From sequence record MW269952.1: a DNA stretch of 64,000 bases. One strand, 5' to 3'. Every line of letters starts with the position of its first letter. Position 1 is the first letter of the stretch. The notes beneath the pieces were generated by a model that worked only from the letters and a program-made list of their open reading frames with translations, was not told the DNA's origin and did no database searches. The DNA is from Escherichia phage P479. The position numbers were made by a program, and so were the translations under genes. This document shows, in pieces, positions 8,953-15,475 of the stretch.

Positions 8953-9405
8953 ATGATTATCAATGCAAACTCTTGGCATGCTCGTTTCCACGATAAATTT
9001 TATGACCGCCATTCTCGTCCGCACTCATTGTGTGCTTACTTTTGGAAAATGGTTTGGGCCTGTTTTGTTTGTGCCATTTTTATCGGTAGTATGGTTTTTG
9101 GATTAACTGTCGCGGGGGCTGGTGTATTAGAGCATTTCTTTGTATTAAGTACCCCGGTTGGTTTAGGTTTAGGGTTTATTTTAGGACTAGCTACACTGGC
9201 TCTTATTCTGGCGGTAGCATTTGGTTTAATGTATGGTCTAATGAATTTATGGTCCTGGTATGATTTACGTAAAGAAGAAAAGGAATGGCAACGTATTCTA
9301 GCCAAACGTGAAGGAAAGGAAACTAAAGAAAACATCGTTATTCAATACATTAAAGCTCGTAAATCTAAGATGTGTCCTGTAATCCACTTCGAGGACAAAA
9401 AATGA
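8953..9405 (+). CDS. Hypothetical multi-pass membrane protein
   Basis: 150 aa; hydrophobic helices in residues 30-110; overlaps the next gene. Confidence 0.45.
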   Translation: MIINANSWHARFHDKFYDRHSRPHSLCAYFWKMVWACFVCAIFIGSMVFGLTVAGAGVLEHFFVLSTPVGLGLGFILGLATLALILAVAFGLMYGLMNLWSWYDLRKEEKEWQRILAKREGKETKENIVIQYIKARKSKMCPVIHFEDKK

Positions 9406-10412
9406 GAACAGTTATGAAAGGCTACTTCGGTAGCCACCTTTATGGAACAAGTACCCCAGAATCTGATGTCGATTTTAAAGAAATCTTTGTTCCACATCCT
9501 CGTGATATTCTACTTGGGACGGCGATGAACCATACCAACCTGAACACAAATAACACGGCCACCAAAAATACAAAAGATGATGTTGACCATGAACTTTATA
9601 GTCTGAAATATTTCTTTAAACTGGCAGCCGAAGGCGAAACCGTTGCTCTGGACATGATTCACACCCCGGCTGACCTGGTAGTCAAATCCGATTTACCAGA
9701 TGTATGGAAGTTTATTCAAGACAACCGTTCACGGTTTTATACAACTAACATGAAAGCCTATTTAGGGTATGTCCGTAAGCAAGCTTCTAAATATGGTGTT
9801 AAAGGTTCTCGTCTGGCTGCTCTGCGTGGTGTACTGGCTATTGTTAACCAGATTCCTGAACAGTGGGTCGATTATCAAGAAGACGGTTCGACTAAGCAAC
9901 GTCGCACTAAGGTAGAAGATATCAAACATCGACTCCCTGAAAATGAGTTCTGTGAATGGGTATTCCATAACCACGAGAAAACAGGTCCTCAAACGTTCTA
10001 TACTGTTCTTGGACGTAAGTACCAAACCACCTTGTCTTTAATCGAGCTCAAGCAATCTCTGAATAAGCTCGATGCGGAATATGGTGAACGTGCTCGTAAG
10101 GCTGAAGCCAATGAAGGTATTGACTGGAAAGCATTGAGTCATGCTTACCGAGCTGGATATCAGCTGAAGGAAATTTATATGACCGGTGACCTTCAGTATC
10201 CTTTACGAACAGCACCGTTTATCCTTGAAATCAAACAAGGGCTACATGCTTTTAAAGATGTACAGGCTGAACTTGAAGCTATCGTTGATGAAGTCGAAAC
10301 TAATGCCATCTGGGCTGCTAAGAACGGTATGCCTGCGAAGGTGGACATGAAGTTCTGGGACAAGTTTGTTGAAGAGGTATATCTTGACAACCACAATTCC
10401 TATTATCGTTAA
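9402..10412 (+). CDS. Pol-beta-superfamily nucleotidyltransferase-like protein
   Basis: 336 aa from ATG 9402 (GAGGA Shine-Dalgarno); GSHLYGTSTPESDVDF fits the G[SG]-x9-D-x-D nucleotidyltransferase motif. Confidence 0.55.
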   Translation: MRTVMKGYFGSHLYGTSTPESDVDFKEIFVPHPRDILLGTAMNHTNLNTNNTATKNTKDDVDHELYSLKYFFKLAAEGETVALDMIHTPADLVVKSDLPDVWKFIQDNRSRFYTTNMKAYLGYVRKQASKYGVKGSRLAALRGVLAIVNQIPEQWVDYQEDGSTKQRRTKVEDIKHRLPENEFCEWVFHNHEKTGPQTFYTVLGRKYQTTLSLIELKQSLNKLDAEYGERARKAEANEGIDWKALSHAYRAGYQLKEIYMTGDLQYPLRTAPFILEIKQGLHAFKDVQAELEAIVDEVETNAIWAAKNGMPAKVDMKFWDKFVEEVYLDNHNSYYR

Positions 10413-10418
10413 ATTCTA

Positions 10419-10442
10419 AGGACCCTTCGGGGTCCTTTTTTA
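10419..10442 (+). terminator. Rho-independent terminator (UUCG tetraloop)
   Basis: AAGGACCC-TTCG-GGGTCCTT followed by a T-run. Confidence 0.7.
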
Positions 10443-10455
10443 TTTTAAAAAGTAG

Positions 10456-10510
10456 TGTACAACCAGATGGTCATGAGGCATAATGTTCCCATACTGAGTT
10501 ACCAAATAAA
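10456..10510 (+). promoter_or_regulatory. T4-type early promoter (family with CCATACTGAGTTACCAAA leader)
   Basis: AAAAGTAGTGTACA, 17-bp spacer, CATAAT 10479-10484, then GTTCCCATACTGAGTTACCAAA. Confidence 0.6.
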
Positions 10511-10525
10511 CAAACGGAGAATAAA

Positions 10526-10732
10526 ATGTTAGAATTAATCAAAGCTGCTGGTGAAAAAGGTCTGATGGTTAACACTCGTGACCCAGAACAACGTCAAGCA
10601 TTTGGTGAGTTAAAAGCCAAAGGTCTGGTTAAAGCATCCCTTGGTATTGGTAATGCTTTGCGTGTGACTTTGACCCCTGCGGGTAAAGCAATGTTCTTCC
10701 CTAAACCATTACCAAAACGTCGTCGCAAGTGA
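10526..10732 (+). CDS. Hypothetical small basic protein
   Basis: 68 aa; C-terminal KRRRK tail; GGAG Shine-Dalgarno. Confidence 0.4.
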   Translation: MLELIKAAGEKGLMVNTRDPEQRQAFGELKAKGLVKASLGIGNALRVTLTPAGKAMFFPKPLPKRRRK

Positions 10733-10738
10733 GGAATT

Positions 10739-11041
10739 ATGAAGAAGTATGAACTTGACATGATTGATGCATGTCTGAAATCTGCTGACCATTTTAAGTT
10801 GAAAATGCACAAGTTAAGAGGAATGGTCAAAACTCCAGAAGAGAAGAAGCGATATGCTCTGAAGGAGAAATGTAAAGCTCTTATCATGATGGATAAGCTG
10901 CAAATGGTCGCCGCAGAAGCTCACAGGACACGTAAAGCTGAGGCCCTTGGTGTTTATATGGCAGAGCAGCTCCATCGCGCCCAGCAAGCCGTTAAGAGCG
11001 TCTGGTTCAGCGGTGAAAATACTGAAAGAACTTTTAATTAA
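10739..11041 (+). CDS. Hypothetical protein
   Basis: 100 aa; basic, helical. Confidence 0.4.
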   Translation: MKKYELDMIDACLKSADHFKLKMHKLRGMVKTPEEKKRYALKEKCKALIMMDKLQMVAAEAHRTRKAEALGVYMAEQLHRAQQAVKSVWFSGENTERTFN

Positions 11042-11044
11042 ATG

Positions 11045-11095
11045 TGTACATAGTATGGGGATAGACGTATAATGTTCCCATACTGAGTTACCAAA
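11045..11095 (+). promoter_or_regulatory. T4-type early promoter (same family as 10456)
   Basis: TGTACA 11045-11050, 17-bp spacer, TATAAT 11068-11073, GTTCCCATACTGAGTTACCAAA leader. Confidence 0.6.
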
Positions 11096-11109
11096 TACTG
11101 GAGAATAAA

Positions 11110-11634
11110 ATGGAAGCTAAATCAATCTTTAATCTGATTAATTACAATAATGGTAATTTTAAATCAGAATCGCAAAGCAAGTTCTTTAATGATGTTGCTT
11201 GTGCGGGTGAGATTACAGTATCAGGTGGTCAGACTTATAAAAACGCCTGGAACTGGATTGTGACTGTTGATTCAGTTGGTATTGTTGATGTGTATAAAAA
11301 CACCAACAAAAACCACTCTTTGTTCTGGTCAAGAGAGACTAATGCAGAATATCAAGCGGCAAGAGCGAAGAAAAATATGCCTACTGAATCTGATGTACAA
11401 AACATCAAATCAGATATCCAATATTATGATGGTCTGATTGCTGAACAACAAGCGGTGCTTGATAAGTTTAATGAAATCAAGGCATGTAAAGAGATTCCTG
11501 AATTCATGCGGGAATCAGTTAATGAACAATACAATCTCACTTCAGAGCGTATTGAAACCTATACCAAACAAAGAGCAGAGCGCCAGGTACTCCTTCAGAA
11601 GTTTGAAGAGCGTTTAAAGACGGTTCTCGCATAA
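11110..11634 (+). CDS. Hypothetical protein
   Basis: 174 aa. Confidence 0.45.
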   Translation: MEAKSIFNLINYNNGNFKSESQSKFFNDVACAGEITVSGGQTYKNAWNWIVTVDSVGIVDVYKNTNKNHSLFWSRETNAEYQAARAKKNMPTESDVQNIKSDIQYYDGLIAEQQAVLDKFNEIKACKEIPEFMRESVNEQYNLTSERIETYTKQRAERQVLLQKFEERLKTVLA

Positions 11635-11697
11635 ACGCTTTATACCAAGGATGGTATAATGGTTCTGACCTTTGATTAATCTATTGAGGAAATTATT

Positions 11698-12543
11698 ATG
11701 TCGCAAGCAATTAATGAAATTCGTTCTGAAGTTAAAAAAGTTGTTAAATTTAACAGTATTCCAAGTACTAAAGATGTGGTTTTAAAGGTTCTATATATGA
11801 TGTGGGATAAGTTCAATGTTTGTACTAATTCTGCTGAATTCACTAAAATCTTTAATAAAACAACGGGATTGCTTACATTAGAAGACCGAGTCATGAAATC
11901 TCTTCATCGTTCAGGTATGTTGTCTCGTGCTAATGCTAAAATTCTACTTAAAAATTATAACAAAGGCTATGACCTTTATGGTCGTGCGATTAGCACCATG
12001 ACATTTGATGAAGTGGTCAAAGACCTTTGGAAGAACCAACGTCGTTTACTGGCGCTTGGCGCGCGTCTTGCAAGTGGTCAAGATAAACAAATGACCTTTA
12101 AAACCAATAATTCTTTAGATTATAAACTATTTAATGTTATTAAAGGTCAAAATGAAGGTGAATACAGTATTTCTTCTTTTAGTGGATGTCAATACGAAAA
12201 CTGGAAATTCCATCTTCGTTTGGCGTTGTCTGTACTGGAATGTCATGGTGTTCTTACCTTTTATGATGTTCAAACTGGAGGCGTCCAGCGTATTAAATTA
12301 TGTCAAATTAAAGACCAAGTTGAAGTCAGTCCTTCAGAACAAGCTCCTAAAATGGAACCTGTTCCAGTGCGAAGCAATGAAAAATATTCAGAGCAAATTG
12401 AGCTTTTCACTAAACAGATTGAAGAGCTTAACATCACCATCCAGCAGCAAGATGATGAAATTTTCCGCCTGTCAGGACTGAACGGCGCGGCAAAAGCTGA
12501 ACGTCAGAAACTGATGGACGTTATTAAATTGCTTAAGGCTTAA
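11698..12543 (+). CDS. Hypothetical protein with C-terminal coiled coil
   Basis: 281 aa; heptad-like C-terminus (...EELNITIQQQDDEIFRLSGL...KLMDVIKLLKA). Confidence 0.45.
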   Translation: MSQAINEIRSEVKKVVKFNSIPSTKDVVLKVLYMMWDKFNVCTNSAEFTKIFNKTTGLLTLEDRVMKSLHRSGMLSRANAKILLKNYNKGYDLYGRAISTMTFDEVVKDLWKNQRRLLALGARLASGQDKQMTFKTNNSLDYKLFNVIKGQNEGEYSISSFSGCQYENWKFHLRLALSVLECHGVLTFYDVQTGGVQRIKLCQIKDQVEVSPSEQAPKMEPVPVRSNEKYSEQIELFTKQIEELNITIQQQDDEIFRLSGLNGAAKAERQKLMDVIKLLKA

Positions 12544-12544
12544 T

Positions 12545-12760
12545 ATGACCATTTTGATTATCAGTATTATTTTTGGTTATCTTGTGACGGGTTTTATTAC
12601 TACCCTGTTGCTTCACAAGTTTGATAGTCCCTACGAAAGTGGGGACGAGTATGATGCGGTGTTCACAACATTTTGCTGGCCTATATTCTGGGTAGTCGCT
12701 GTTATAATGTGTGTGACCTGGCCTTTTGCTAAACTCTATGAAAAATTATTTGGACTATGA
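12545..12760 (+). CDS. Hypothetical small membrane protein (CWP-motif family)
   Basis: 71 aa; two hydrophobic segments; FCWPIFWVVAV motif shared with ORF 15472-15633. Confidence 0.4.
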   Translation: MTILIISIIFGYLVTGFITTLLLHKFDSPYESGDEYDAVFTTFCWPIFWVVAVIMCVTWPFAKLYEKLFGL

Positions 12761-12761
12761 T

Positions 12762-13643
12762 ATGAACATTAAAACACGTAAAGAATATTCTCGATTTGAA
12801 CAGCGTGAAGGACGTGCAACCCGTCTTATCGCGATGAATTCTCTGGTTAACTTTGGCAAAATCAAATCAGGTTCTGCCACCCAGGGGTATGGACAACGTA
12901 TTGTAAGAATTAACTCTCTGAATGATTACTGCCGCCGCCCGGCGTTTTTGTTTGGTGCCACAGTTCGTAAGAGCATCAAGGAAATCCTGGCCGCTGGACT
13001 TCGTATTCGTAAAGCTCCAGTTAACATCAAGAACTATAATTTTACCTCCAGTAACTTGATTATCAATATCAAGAATGATGGTGTGCAGATTAAGTTCAAG
13101 CCAACCACCAAGGGTGATGTTGCTCTTTGTGATACCTTTAAAGAGGTTATGGGTATTGCGCTGTTTTATATGCGCCATGCTGTTGAAGCATACACGTTTG
13201 AAGAAGATACAAATTATATCCACCAAACGGAAAAATTCCTTAAAACTATAACCATTGATATTAAATTGACTAAAGAATATCTTTTGTCTTACGCTCCTTA
13301 TCAGGAGAAAAAGGAACCAGAAATGACAGAACGTATCCCTACCGCATCATATGGCCCAGCATTTGCAGGTCAGTTTAAATCTTACGACCAGGCTAAAATT
13401 TCACCGTTGGACGTTAAAAACATGTACAAATGGAAAGTTCAACCATCCAGCTCTCTTGAAATCTTTAACCCACCAATGAAGCCTATTGAGAGCTATCATG
13501 CTGATGCTATCCAGGAATCAGTCAACCGCTTAAATGGTCTGATTGAAGATGAGAAAAAGGGTATCCAGGATGTTCTGAATCGCATCAAGAACATGGAAAC
13601 ACAACGCAATAAATTGCAGGCGGCGATTTTAGCATTAAAATAA
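12762..13643 (+). CDS. Hypothetical protein with C-terminal coiled coil
   Basis: 293 aa from ATG 12762; C-terminus ...LNGLIEDEKKGIQDVLNRIKNMETQRNKLQAAILALK. Confidence 0.45.
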   Translation: MNIKTRKEYSRFEQREGRATRLIAMNSLVNFGKIKSGSATQGYGQRIVRINSLNDYCRRPAFLFGATVRKSIKEILAAGLRIRKAPVNIKNYNFTSSNLIINIKNDGVQIKFKPTTKGDVALCDTFKEVMGIALFYMRHAVEAYTFEEDTNYIHQTEKFLKTITIDIKLTKEYLLSYAPYQEKKEPEMTERIPTASYGPAFAGQFKSYDQAKISPLDVKNMYKWKVQPSSSLEIFNPPMKPIESYHADAIQESVNRLNGLIEDEKKGIQDVLNRIKNMETQRNKLQAAILALK

Positions 13644-13644
13644 T

Positions 13645-13690
13645 GTTTACTTCCAAGGATGGAGGGAGTATAATGAATTCCTACTTTATG
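13645..13690 (+). promoter_or_regulatory. T4-type early promoter
   Basis: GTTTAC 13645-13650, 18-bp spacer, TATAAT 13669-13674; GAGGAG Shine-Dalgarno before ATG 13702. Confidence 0.55.
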
Positions 13691-13701
13691 AGGAGAACAC
13701 T

Positions 13702-14691
13702 ATGACACGTAACGAATATATCCAGGCCTTTAACGCAACTATCGACACAAAAGTAAAACCATTGACAGGCGAATCGGCTATCCTTTTAATTATCAATTAT
13801 TGGTTAAATCAGATTGATTCGACGATTGTTGCATCTGGTCGCTTCAAGAAAGACATTGCAACTATTGCGAGTCGTGCCGGTAATGATGATATCAAGAAAA
13901 CTTTTAAAGGTTCCAGAGTCCTGGCGTACCTGGTTAATAAAGACCTTCTTCATAAGTTTGGTGTTGAATCCAACCGCGGTAAAGGTACAATTGGGTATCA
14001 TTGGTTTGGCGATGTTGAAAAATACTACCTTGATAAACAAGGCTATACTGTTTCTGAATTCGCACATTGCTGGGCTCGTGAATTCAGAGATAACAAAATG
14101 TCTATCATAAAATCAGCGACAAAATTGATGGGCGGTGATTTTCGCACTATCTCCCATTTGGCTGAGCACATGATAAAGGTTAAAGAGTCTGGTGAAAACC
14201 AGGTAATTATTACAGTTAAGCATGAGTTCTTTACGCCGGTGGCTACTCCAGAAAATGTCAAAAAGTATCTTGATGTTGCCTGTACGCTTACTCATCAGCT
14301 GGTGTGTGCCCTTAACTATATGCGCACTGTTGAAAAAATTAAAGTAGACCCTATCACCAGTGCTCATGGTTGGAAAGGTTGGAAAATTGTGGTGACATTA
14401 CGCGAAGTTAAATGTGCAAAACAACCAACTGATGCAGAAATTTATAAAAAGAAAAGTGAGGAAATTATGAATGCACCACAAGAAACCACCCTTGAAGACC
14501 TGATTGATAATCTGAATAATGAGCCAGCGGAACAAAAAGCGCCTGAAATTGTTGCTCTGGAAATGGCGTATAATAAAGCTCTTGCTGTTAATAAAAAGGC
14601 AACTGAAGACTATACTAAAGCCAAGCGACTTTGGGAAGAATCAACCAATCGTCTGGATAAACTGGAACAAGCTCTGGAGCTGCTGAAATGA
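13702..14691 (+). CDS. Hypothetical protein with C-terminal coiled coil
   Basis: 329 aa; C-terminus ...[32 protein letters not shown]. Confidence 0.45.
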   Translation: MTRNEYIQAFNATIDTKVKPLTGESAILLIINYWLNQIDSTIVASGRFKKDIATIASRAGNDDIKKTFKGSRVLAYLVNKDLLHKFGVESNRGKGTIGYHWFGDVEKYYLDKQGYTVSEFAHCWAREFRDNKMSIIKSATKLMGGDFRTISHLAEHMIKVKESGENQVIITVKHEFFTPVATPENVKKYLDVACTLTHQLVCALNYMRTVEKIKVDPITSAHGWKGWKIVVTLREVKCAKQPTDAEIYKKKSEEIMNAPQETTLEDLIDNLNNEPAEQKAPEIVALEMAYNKALAVNKKATEDYTKAKRLWEESTNRLDKLEQALELLK

Positions 14692-14981
14692 AACAACGTT
14701 TAGCTGAAGATATTGCAGAAACTGCATTTCCAGAATGGACCCCCGCAGCGGGGGTTAATAAAGGTCTTATAAACTGGACTGATGATTATAGTCAGGTTCC
14801 TGATTGGGATATGGTAATGGCTATGGTTCGCCGCCGGGAACGTGCTTCTAAGAGCGTTCCAAACTGTCCAGAATGTGGAACTGAACAGGTCCAGTTAGTC
14901 CATTGGCAGACTAGTAATCTTCGTTATAAATGCAGACATTGCAAACACAAATTTGAGCGAGAAGAAAATGGCAAAGCGTAA
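14688..14981 (+). CDS. Hypothetical zinc-ribbon protein
   Basis: 97 aa; CPECG...CRHC Cys4 pair. Confidence 0.4.
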
Positions 14982-15210
14982 AGAATATCTTGAGACTGCT
15001 GATAAGGCGGTCCGTGAATTAACTCTGGCCTATTATAAAGAACACGGTAAACTTCCGGATAGTTATTCAGTATTGAAATCTGCTTTAACTCGTTCATATA
15101 ATAATATGCGTTCAGAAGTTTATGGTATTATGGTCAAACATAAAGAACAAACCGGTCAATACCCCGATTATACTGAGACCTTCAAACAAGTATTAGGAAT
15201 TAAGGAATAA
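14968..15210 (+). CDS. Hypothetical protein
   Basis: 80 aa from ATG 14968 (alternative TTG at 14953). Confidence 0.35.
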
Positions 15211-15211
15211 T

Positions 15212-15475
15212 ATGTTTAAAGTATATGGTTACGATTCATCTATTCATCGCTGTGTTTTCTGTGATAATGCAAAACGTTTACTTGACGTTAAAAAACATCC
15301 TTATGAATTCATCAATGTTATGCCGGAAAAAGGTGTGTTTGATGATGAGAAGATTGCTCAACTCCTGGTTGCGCTTGGTCGCGAATCTCAAATTGGTTTG
15401 ACCTTGCCACAGGTATTTGCCCCTGATGGAAGTCATATTGGTGGCTTCGACCAACTGCGGGCATATTTCAAATGA
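15212..15475 (+). CDS. nrdC: Thioredoxin/glutaredoxin NrdC
   Basis: 87 aa; MFKVYGYDS.IH.CV.CDNAKRLL...PQVFAPDGSHIGGFDQLR.YFK nearly identical to T4 NrdC. Confidence 0.95.
   Translation: MFKVYGYDSSIHRCVFCDNAKRLLDVKKHPYEFINVMPEKGVFDDEKIAQLLVALGRESQIGLTLPQVFAPDGSHIGGFDQLRAYFK

Follow-up and report, generated by a model that had tools for sequence, protein, structure and literature searches.

Neighboring nrdC.6, nrdC.5 and nrdC.4 genes of a T4-type phage appear to encode a diversified head-linker-tail family with a possible counter-defense role

Three consecutive nrdC.x genes in Escherichia phage P479

The sequence analyzed here is a stretch of 64,000 nucleotides (nt) of Escherichia phage P479 (record MW269952.1; the whole stretch is hereafter called the window), in which a preliminary description had singled out three consecutive genes at 11698-14691 whose products seemed to share an N-terminal domain and a C-terminal coiled coil. 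The three open reading frames (ORFs) of 281, 293 and 329 amino acids (aa) are present on the + strand where that description had placed them, and the comparison with the nrdC.x ORFs of phage T4 that it had proposed identifies their products as homologues of T4 NrdC.6, NrdC.5 and NrdC.4, respectively. The annotations of VR7 and T4 were used for these identities as well. The T4-type phage that carries the genes is Gaprivervirus-like and falls in the Gaprivervirus group; its DNA is 91-95% identical to that of VR7, SP18 and TH55. The assignment of the genes to the tk-nrdC interval held in that they are part of the tk-nrdC accessory region, but their location is more exactly between nrdC.11 and nrdC.

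The NrdC.6 homologue (281 aa, 11698..12543, + strand) matches phrog_2257 with E=2.6e-121 and is 47% identical to T4 NrdC.6 (BLASTP, E=4e-52), and all homologues of the window protein carry PF26899. The NrdC.5 homologue (293 aa, 12762..13643, + strand) matches the Pfam family DUF7235 (PF23882; E=8.9e-117, 390 bits against a cut-off of 30), with residues 1-293 aligned to profile positions 9-307, and shares 27% identity with T4 NrdC.5 over 305 aa (E=8e-25). Its ATG at 12762 sits within a longer TTG/ATG ORF opening at 12726/12738, and is supported as the start by a 30-nt repeat that it has in common with the start of nrdC.4. The NrdC.4 homologue (329 aa, 13702..14691, + strand) matches phrog_1435 over residues 1-329 (E=1.5e-139) and T4 NrdC.4 with 48.6% identity over 333 aa (E=1.7e-112); PF26897 is present on all homologues of the window protein, which also shows 27% identity to T4 NrdC.3 (BLASTP, E=1.8e-6).

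Head-linker-tail architecture

AlphaFold2 models of the NrdC.4 and NrdC.5 homologues were built from family alignments. In the NrdC.4 model, which has a predicted local distance difference test (pLDDT) score of 81, a folded N-terminal domain (aa 1-235; 13702-14406) is followed by a low-confidence linker (aa 236-280; 14407-14541) and a single terminal helix (aa 281-328; 14542-14685). The NrdC.5 model (pLDDT 67) shows the same succession of a folded domain (aa 1-178; 12762-13295), a predicted-disordered linker in which pLDDT falls below 50 (aa 179-241; 13296-13484) and a single terminal helix (aa 242-292; 13485-13637). For the NrdC.6 homologue, the boundaries were set from sequence only and delimit an N-terminal domain (~aa 1-210; 11698-12327), a Pro/Glu-rich linker (aa 211-229; 12328-12384) and a heptad tail (aa 230-281; 12385-12540).

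In each of the three proteins, the C-terminal 49 residues follow a single heptad register, in which 79-86% of the residues at positions a and d are hydrophobic versus 23-29% at the other positions, and the registers of the three tails are identical when numbered from the C-terminus. Tail lengths are also similar (48-53 aa), with heptad scores of 0.50 for NrdC.6, 0.63 for NrdC.5 and 0.57 for NrdC.4. The 64-kb window contains 45 ORFs of 150 aa or more, and a tail score of at least 0.5 is attained by none but the three (the next best score is 0.43), which are adjacent to one another, the chance of three positives among 45 ORFs being consecutive being ~0.003. In 18 loci sampled from four T4-like lineages, the tail of NrdC.3, NrdC.4, NrdC.5 and NrdC.6 was found in nearly all cases, the exceptions being damaged or gapped copies such as NrdC.6 of reference T4. 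Outside these four families the heptad tail is rare in the same loci; a small number of unrelated ORFs, among them the 80-aa NrdC.1, barely reach the cut-off, and a check of the neighboring proteins NrdC.8, NrdC.10 and NrdC.11 revealed no such tail.

The two models and the one register followed by all three proteins agree with the earlier claim of a ~200-residue globular N-terminal region and a C-terminal coiled coil, the tail measuring ~50 residues, and the suggested coiled-coil check gave heptad periodicity in all three tails as well as modeled helices in the two proteins for which models were built. The tail is an amphipathic helix of ~50 residues that most likely forms a coiled coil. Individual tails have features of their own, namely two Gly residues in the middle of the NrdC.6 tail (SGLNG), and Ala/Ser at many d positions and Tyr/Trp at a positions of the NrdC.4 tail, a composition that is atypical for a parallel dimer.

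Relationships among the N-terminal domains

The three proteins show no obvious sequence similarity to one another, as had been stated previously (pairwise BLASTP E 0.12-3.7), and an earlier hhalign comparison of full-length proteins with shallow alignments gave weak values (E 0.002-0.06). We then compared profiles of the N-terminal domains using hhalign, with the tails removed to avoid coiled-coil bias and with alignments made from the 18 loci and database homologues. These tail-free comparisons link NrdC.3 with NrdC.4 (E=1.4e-14, probability 98%, 209 columns) and NrdC.4 with NrdC.5 (E=2.2e-5, probability 76%, 127 columns). Matches of NrdC.6 are weaker and vary with the profile used: E=2.7e-3 and a probability of 11% over 199 collinear columns against NrdC.4, E=8.5e-4 and 24% over 132 columns against NrdC.3 and NrdC.4 together, and E=2.5e-4 and 43% over 71 columns against a merged profile of NrdC.3, NrdC.4 and NrdC.5. 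All control comparisons involving NrdC.8, NrdC.10 or NrdC.11 gave E values of at least 0.02 with low probability over 5-72 columns.

The sequence alignment of NrdC.4 and NrdC.5 pairs the same secondary structure elements as are found in both models, with a common core in the order helix, beta-hairpin, two helices, beta-hairpin, long helix and long beta-hairpin; relative to NrdC.5, NrdC.4 has ~60 additional helical residues at the N-terminus. When both models were used as Foldseek queries against BFVD, four common distant targets were retrieved, namely proteins of Erwinia phage Cronus (A0A2S1GM98; 1.7e-4 for NrdC.4 and 6e-8 for NrdC.5), Enterobacter phage IME523 (A0A7G3KGN9; 1.9e-7 and 7.7e-8) and Pectobacterium phage PM2 (A0A0A0PZG4; 9.3e-8 and 4.8e-6), and E5EYP0 (5.5e-5 and 3.3e-4). 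The NrdC.5 model also matches a 378-aa protein of phage Sf25 (8.6e-4), which by name, organism and length is the NrdC.6-family protein P0150. Since these matches extend over the whole chain, including the long terminal helix, and have TM-scores of 0.2-0.48, they support the architecture more than an exact superposition of the N-terminal domains.

A helix-pair motif is common to all families. In the window it reads IIKSATKLMGGDFRTI in NrdC.4, LLALGARLASGQDKQM in NrdC.6 and ILAAGLRIRKAPVNI in NrdC.5, with DNKMSIIKSATKLMGGDFRTI encoded at 14089-14151, NQRRLLALGARLASGQDKQM at 12034-12093 and VRKSIKEILAAGLRIRKAPVNI at 12963-13028; in T4 it reads ILSTASRLKGSDINL in NrdC.5 and MLFKHSRRLFCHGDDRTI in NrdC.3. 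Moreover, NrdC.3, NrdC.4 and NrdC.5 have a common N-terminal motif, M(K)TR..Y, and the 5' ends of nrdC.5 and nrdC.4 share 30 nt at the DNA level.

We conclude that NrdC.3, NrdC.4 and NrdC.5 are paralogues and that NrdC.6 is probably a further one. The notion of a diversified family with a repeated architecture, put forward in the preliminary description, can therefore be upheld for the N-terminal domains of NrdC.4 and NrdC.5, whose homology is supported by hhalign, AlphaFold2 and Foldseek, but NrdC.6 is only a probable member (E 2.5e-4 to 2.7e-3). Unrelated folds of the N-terminal domains had been named as what would speak against such a family; the NrdC.4 and NrdC.5 models instead present the same order of elements.

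NrdC.8 as a fourth member finds no support in the profiles (tail-free hhalign E of at least 0.036), and its heptad score is lower: its tail is helical, with a weaker heptad pattern (0.31), and ends KFEERLKTVLA. NrdC.8 may be a distant relative. A 175-aa protein of Klebsiella phage KPV15 was matched by the NrdC.4 model (Foldseek, E=3e-3). The 30-nt start motif of nrdC.5 and nrdC.4 (…ACACGTAA(A/C)GAATAT, encoding TR(K/N)EY) recurs with 73% identity at the start of nrdC.1 (14959-14988), whose 80-aa product starts with MAKRKEY and has a heptad score of 0.49.

Evolution of heads and tails

Hidden Markov models of the tails gave more than 100 bits within a family, and across families their scores rarely rose above those of heptad-preserving shuffles. 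The sole clear match between families was that of the NrdC.4 profile to the NrdC.5 tail (7.9 bits, a score reached by 0 of 300 shuffles). In general appearance the tails are alike in length, register, position and type of ending (R..L..A...LK). Among distant orthologues, the tails are 66-74% identical and the N-terminal domains 44-51%. The ratio of nonsynonymous to synonymous substitution rates (dN/dS) for the N-terminal domains of NrdC.3, NrdC.4, NrdC.5 and NrdC.6 is 0.26-0.31 (0.30 in NrdC.6, 0.26 in NrdC.5 and 0.31 in NrdC.4), and that for the tails is 0.13 in NrdC.4, 0.11 in NrdC.5 and 0.23-0.27 in NrdC.6 and NrdC.3 (0.23 in NrdC.6), compared with 0.15 for the neighboring NrdC.8 and 0.04-0.05 for NrdC.10 and NrdC.11. 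All of them are real genes, kept under purifying selection; their heads evolve fast and their tails are under tighter constraint. The exposed heptad positions have conservation values of 0.77-0.83 versus 0.84-0.90 for the a/d core, and because of this conservation of exposed positions the tail sequences suggest a specific interaction surface, more than a generic zipper needs.

Distribution, modularity and loss

The gene order NrdC.8-NrdC.6-NrdC.5-NrdC.4-(NrdC.3)-NrdC.2-NrdC.1-nrdC is kept in the 18 loci. Tblastn searches identified NrdC.6 in 741 phage records, NrdC.3 in 654, NrdC.5 in 577 and NrdC.4 in 553. An exhaustive search of 1.84 billion representatives with the NrdC.4 profile returned only seven matches, including NrdC.3-like proteins, and did not reach NrdC.5 or NrdC.6, which makes the family a narrow one at the sequence level; more distant members are detectable by structure only. 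Foldseek matches extend the design to T4-like phages of Yersinia, Klebsiella, Pectobacterium, Serratia, Erwinia, Enterobacter and Acinetobacter. In Acinetobacter phage Acj61 (Twarogvirinae), two of these matches are the adjacent proteins p120 (330 aa) and p121 (304 aa), which are encoded between nrdC.10/nrdC.11 and nrdC and each consist of a head, a linker and a heptad tail; neither of them was detectable by hhalign.

Head and tail were found to be recombined in Salmonella phage Manna (PP987310; 5131-6168 of locus L003), which encodes a 345-aa in-frame chimera of an NrdC.6 head (aa 1-258, 93% identical to T4 NrdC.6) and an NrdC.4 linker and tail (aa 263-345, 96% identical to T4 NrdC.4 aa 251-333), joined at a common DDEI/CDEI stretch; nrdC.5 and most of nrdC.4 are deleted in this phage. 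Two further loci had given tail-only tblastn matches, in ACG-C40 (L020, 4290-4725), where ~70 nrdC.5 codons are followed by the NrdC.3 tail in another frame, and in Pinarejo (L021, 3420-3660), where 21 nrdC.6 codons are retained together with the tail of that gene in another frame. We rejected both as domain swaps, as they are out-of-frame deletion remnants, and Manna alone has an in-frame chimera.

NrdC.6 of reference T4 (NC_000866, 52066-52893) has 275 aa and ends with ...QIEELIFLFNNMMMKFSDYLD, whereas NrdC.6 of other members of Tequatrovirus has 295-296 aa and continues with ...QIEELNISIQQYDDEIFRLSGLSSKAKSEREKLIKIVDLLKS (P0155; 6028-6915 of locus L008). The laboratory T4 reference thus appears, from the nucleotide sequence, to have lost the NrdC.6 tail by a +1 frameshift of the same DNA. 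Judging from the sampled loci, the NrdC.3-6 genes are dispensable accessory modules that are frequently lost in nature. In Shigella phage Sf25, P0150 (378 aa) contains an internal tandem duplication of ~93 residues, with RAHSTDY...QIEEL occurring twice, which could be real or an assembly artefact.

A candidate role in counter-defense

One of these paralogues has a published phenotype, the sole experimental result that our search brought up: a T4 deletion mutant plates again on Escherichia coli carrying dsr1 of ECOR17 when T4 nrdC.5, an early gene, is supplied from a plasmid, and Dsr1 is a SIR2-type NADase defense protein (Srikant et al. 2022, eLife, PMC9391042). Owing to this phenotype against Dsr1, an anti-defense reading is more specific than the "effectors or adaptors" envisaged in the preliminary description. 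We consider it likely, with a rough probability of 60%, that the array encodes diversified counter-defense proteins with a head, linker and tail design. NrdC.6, NrdC.5 and NrdC.4, together with T4 NrdC.3, would be tandem paralogues of one bipartite design, in which the fast-evolving alpha/beta N-terminal domain is the probable target-binding part and a flexible linker would join this head to a conserved coiled-coil tail that may mediate oligomerization, probably into a parallel dimer, docking onto a partner, or both. The genes would be transcribed from early- or middle-type promoters, ahead of the virion genes, and each paralogue might block a different immune protein of the host by stoichiometric inhibition, in the way that T4 NrdC.5 may act on Dsr1. 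For the window copies, and for NrdC.4 and NrdC.6 generally, we infer the counter-defense role, along with the assignment of the head as target binder and of the tail as oligomerizer.

T4 NrdC.5 and the window NrdC.5 are alike in their position in the array, the head-linker-tail design, and the beginning (KP.E..HADAI) and end (QR.KL..A..AL) of the tail. However, the tail of the T4 protein exceeds that of the window protein by about one heptad, and anti-Dsr1 activity is known, from genetics, for the T4 protein only. T4 NrdC.3, NrdC.4 (PF26897) and NrdC.6 (PF26899) are ORFs of the nrdC-mobD interval, which databases keep as separate families of unknown function. A functional analogue of T4 NrdC.5 is DSAD1, a phage inhibitor of a SIR2-domain NADase (Garb et al. 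2022; structures in PMC11087589 and PMC10973363), which differs in that it acts on DSR2, not Dsr1, and comes from Bacillus phages; no sequence or structural evidence of kinship between DSAD1 and NrdC.5 turned up, although no direct test was made. The array also resembles T4-type anti-defense islands, such as the dmd-tifA-adfA "anti-TA island" (PMC9391042), in that its early genes are clustered, dispensable and quick to evolve, and often undergo deletion and recombination. It differs from such islands in that its genes are paralogous, with a common tail module, and are not assorted unrelated small genes.

Several observations weigh against this picture. With no more than 27% identity to its T4 counterpart, the window NrdC.5 may have a different target, and no functional account of NrdC.3, NrdC.4 or NrdC.6 was found in the literature searched. 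Membership statistics for NrdC.6 are weak (hhalign probability 11-43%), its tail-free comparison with NrdC.5 gave E=0.15 with a probability of less than 1% over 73 columns, and the Foldseek search of BFVD with the NrdC.4 model retrieved no NrdC.6-family protein; the low TM-scores of the whole-chain matches given above belong here as well. Except for the NrdC.4-NrdC.5 match, tail similarity across families is no better than that of shuffles, and a common origin of the tails is not demonstrated. Overall dN/dS is below 1, with no positive selection shown, and the number of promoter-like sites across the region, all of them consensus matches only, does not exceed that in shuffled sequences.

Some of these points would be expected if unrelated proteins had each acquired a helical tail by coincidence or convergence, an explanation that could also draw on the non-significant BLASTP values. 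It is already refuted for NrdC.3, NrdC.4 and NrdC.5 and appears very improbable for the array as a whole, because tail-free profiles match at 1.4e-14 (NrdC.3 and NrdC.4), 2e-5 (NrdC.4 and NrdC.5) and 2.5e-4 to 2.7e-3 (NrdC.6) against E of at least 0.02 for controls, secondary structure elements occur in one order in both models, which also have common Foldseek targets, the helix-pair and N-terminal motifs are shared, and only 3 of 45 long ORFs, all adjacent, have such a tail. It might also be proposed that the paralogues are subunits of one hetero-oligomer, whose tails, equal in length (48-53 aa) and in the same register from the C-terminus, zip into a single multi-headed machine. Adjacent genes in conserved order, a conservation of exposed heptad positions that almost equals that of the core and points to a specific surface for a partner, and the tolerance of an NrdC.6 head on an NrdC.4 tail in Manna all agree with such an assembly. 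We nevertheless regard it as rather improbable, since the members are unevenly distributed (741, 654, 577 and 553 phage records for NrdC.6, NrdC.3, NrdC.5 and NrdC.4), the window has no NrdC.3, NrdC.6 of reference T4 is frameshifted and tail-less, and single members have been deleted in ACG-C40, Pinarejo and Manna; genes of such an accessory, dispensable kind argue against an obligate hetero-complex. In addition, T4 nrdC.5 on its own, supplied from a plasmid, was enough to overcome Dsr1 (PMC9391042), even if that phage may still have encoded the other paralogues; the text of the paper does not say how far the T4 evo 3 deletion reaches, a point that bears on whether NrdC.5 would act without them.

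The proteins could also have a non-immune role in host takeover or regulation, for example as binders that act on RNA polymerase, the nucleoid or nucleotide metabolism, in which case the Dsr1 phenotype of T4 NrdC.5 would be indirect. This is unlikely, if still conceivable: the genes are dispensable and often deleted in natural isolates, their N-terminal domains evolve fast relative to neighboring genes and copy number varies by lineage, features that are typical of arms-race accessory genes and not of core takeover factors, and the RNA polymerase-like match spans only ~61-67 residues with 11-15% identity. A variant of the immune interpretation starts from the reported recognition of the major capsid protein by the TPR sensor of Dsr1 and, more generally, of capsid, tail-terminator and other structural folds by Dsr1 and Avs-type TPR sensors (2026 preprint, PMC12803255). 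If the core were a derivative of the tail-terminator fold, the paralogues might be early, oligomeric decoys of virion shape, which would occupy the sensor domains of bacterial pattern-recognition immune proteins of Dsr1 or Avs type before the late proteins appear, with one paralogue per sensor and with avidity provided by the tail. We see little prospect for this variant. No Pfam or PHROG match of the three proteins to tail-terminator families (lambda gpU, SPP1 gp17-like, DUF3168) was detected, nor any PDB sequence-profile match, and the genes between nrdC.11 and nrdC lie among early genes with early/middle promoter-like sites and not in the late tail module.

Under the counter-defense interpretation, each paralogue would neutralize a different host defense, with specificity in the variable head and a common oligomerization or docking module in the conserved tail, a hypothesis that can be tested. 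Even in T4, which has been studied more than any other phage, roughly half of the genes are without known function, nrdC.3 to nrdC.6 among them. Our comparisons indicate that the database families of these proteins represent a single head-linker-tail design in three or four versions, one of them with an anti-Dsr1 phenotype. Already known are the genes as ORFs in existing DUF families and the phenotype of the one paralogue; the unification of NrdC.3-6 as one head-linker-tail superfamily with a conserved tail is apparently undescribed, as no account of them as one family or superfamily was found in the literature searched. The hypothesis also provides a rationale for host-range differences among therapeutic T4-like phages that differ in the nrdC.3-6 block.

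Annotation of the nrdC.x proteins

A thioredoxin identity was rejected for the three proteins, which have no thioredoxin-family Pfam match at E<=1 and no CxxC in their sequences, and the models are not thioredoxin-like. Many GenBank and UniProt homologues of NrdC.1-NrdC.11 are labeled "thioredoxin" or "thioredoxin, phage-associated", a label propagated from the locus name nrdC.x, although these proteins are unrelated and not one of them contains a thioredoxin domain or a CxxC motif; this widespread annotation error deserves to be flagged. The DRT1 paper (2026) mentions nrdC.8 for a transcript-level change only and treats it as a nucleotide reductase because of its name. PDB sequence-profile searches, PADLOC, and Rfam and tRNA scans yielded nothing relevant.

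Promoter-like elements and neighboring genes

Several promoter-like elements lie in the intergenic gaps on the + strand. A middle-promoter-like element 5' of nrdC.6 (11634..11660) consists of a MotA-box-like CGCTTTA 12 nt before TATAAT, and an early-promoter-like site in the 58-bp gap 5' of nrdC.4 (13646..13674) consists of TTTACT, a 17-nt spacer and TATAAT (10/12 matches); both are consensus matches only. A direct repeat upstream of nrdC.6 and nrdC.4 (11634-11654 and 13642-13662, + strand) has 76% identity over 21 nt, and another upstream of a 68-aa ORF and nrdC.8 (10475-10508 and 11064-11097, + strand) has 94% over 34 nt. These repeated promoter-like cassettes (10475/11064 and 11634/13642) make the array similar to T4-type hyperplastic regions and are reminiscent of the mobile early-promoter cassettes known from them; PeSL cassettes of T4-type phages were reportedly treated by Arbiol et al. 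in 2010. The window cassettes could serve as recombination substrates. A strong terminator-like hairpin at 10418-10437 (an 8-bp stem with 5 GC pairs, then a T-run) lies directly 3' of nrdC.11 and 5' of the first repeated cassette, which suggests that a transcription unit has its boundary where the gene block starts.

Upstream of the array are NrdC.11 (nucleotidyltransferase), the 68-aa ORF, NrdC.9 and NrdC.8, the last of which (174 aa, 11110..11634, + strand; phrog_2274) directly precedes the NrdC.6 homologue; downstream are NrdC.2, NrdC.1, NrdC, gp49 and NrdD. In comparison with T4 (window 9372-15475), nrdC.10 (325 aa), nrdC.7 and nrdC.3 are absent, and the 68-aa ORF (10526-10732) and a 71-aa transmembrane ORF are present instead. 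The latter (12545-12760, + strand; phrog_7899, E=4.7e-29) is the intervening membrane protein of the preliminary description; it is located between the NrdC.6 and NrdC.5 homologues, has two hydrophobic, transmembrane-like segments (~aa 2-23 and 38-61), stands outside the family, and ends with a TGA stop 1 nt 5' of the NrdC.5 ATG (TGAtATG). T4-type phages lack this two-segment ORF; they have an unrelated membrane protein, NrdC.7, upstream of NrdC.6 instead. The position of the 71-aa ORF is kept in non-T4-type phages, with 93% identity in VR7 and 50-56% in three close relatives (loci L004-L006), and the ORF is far more variable among close relatives than the flanking genes (>90% identity).

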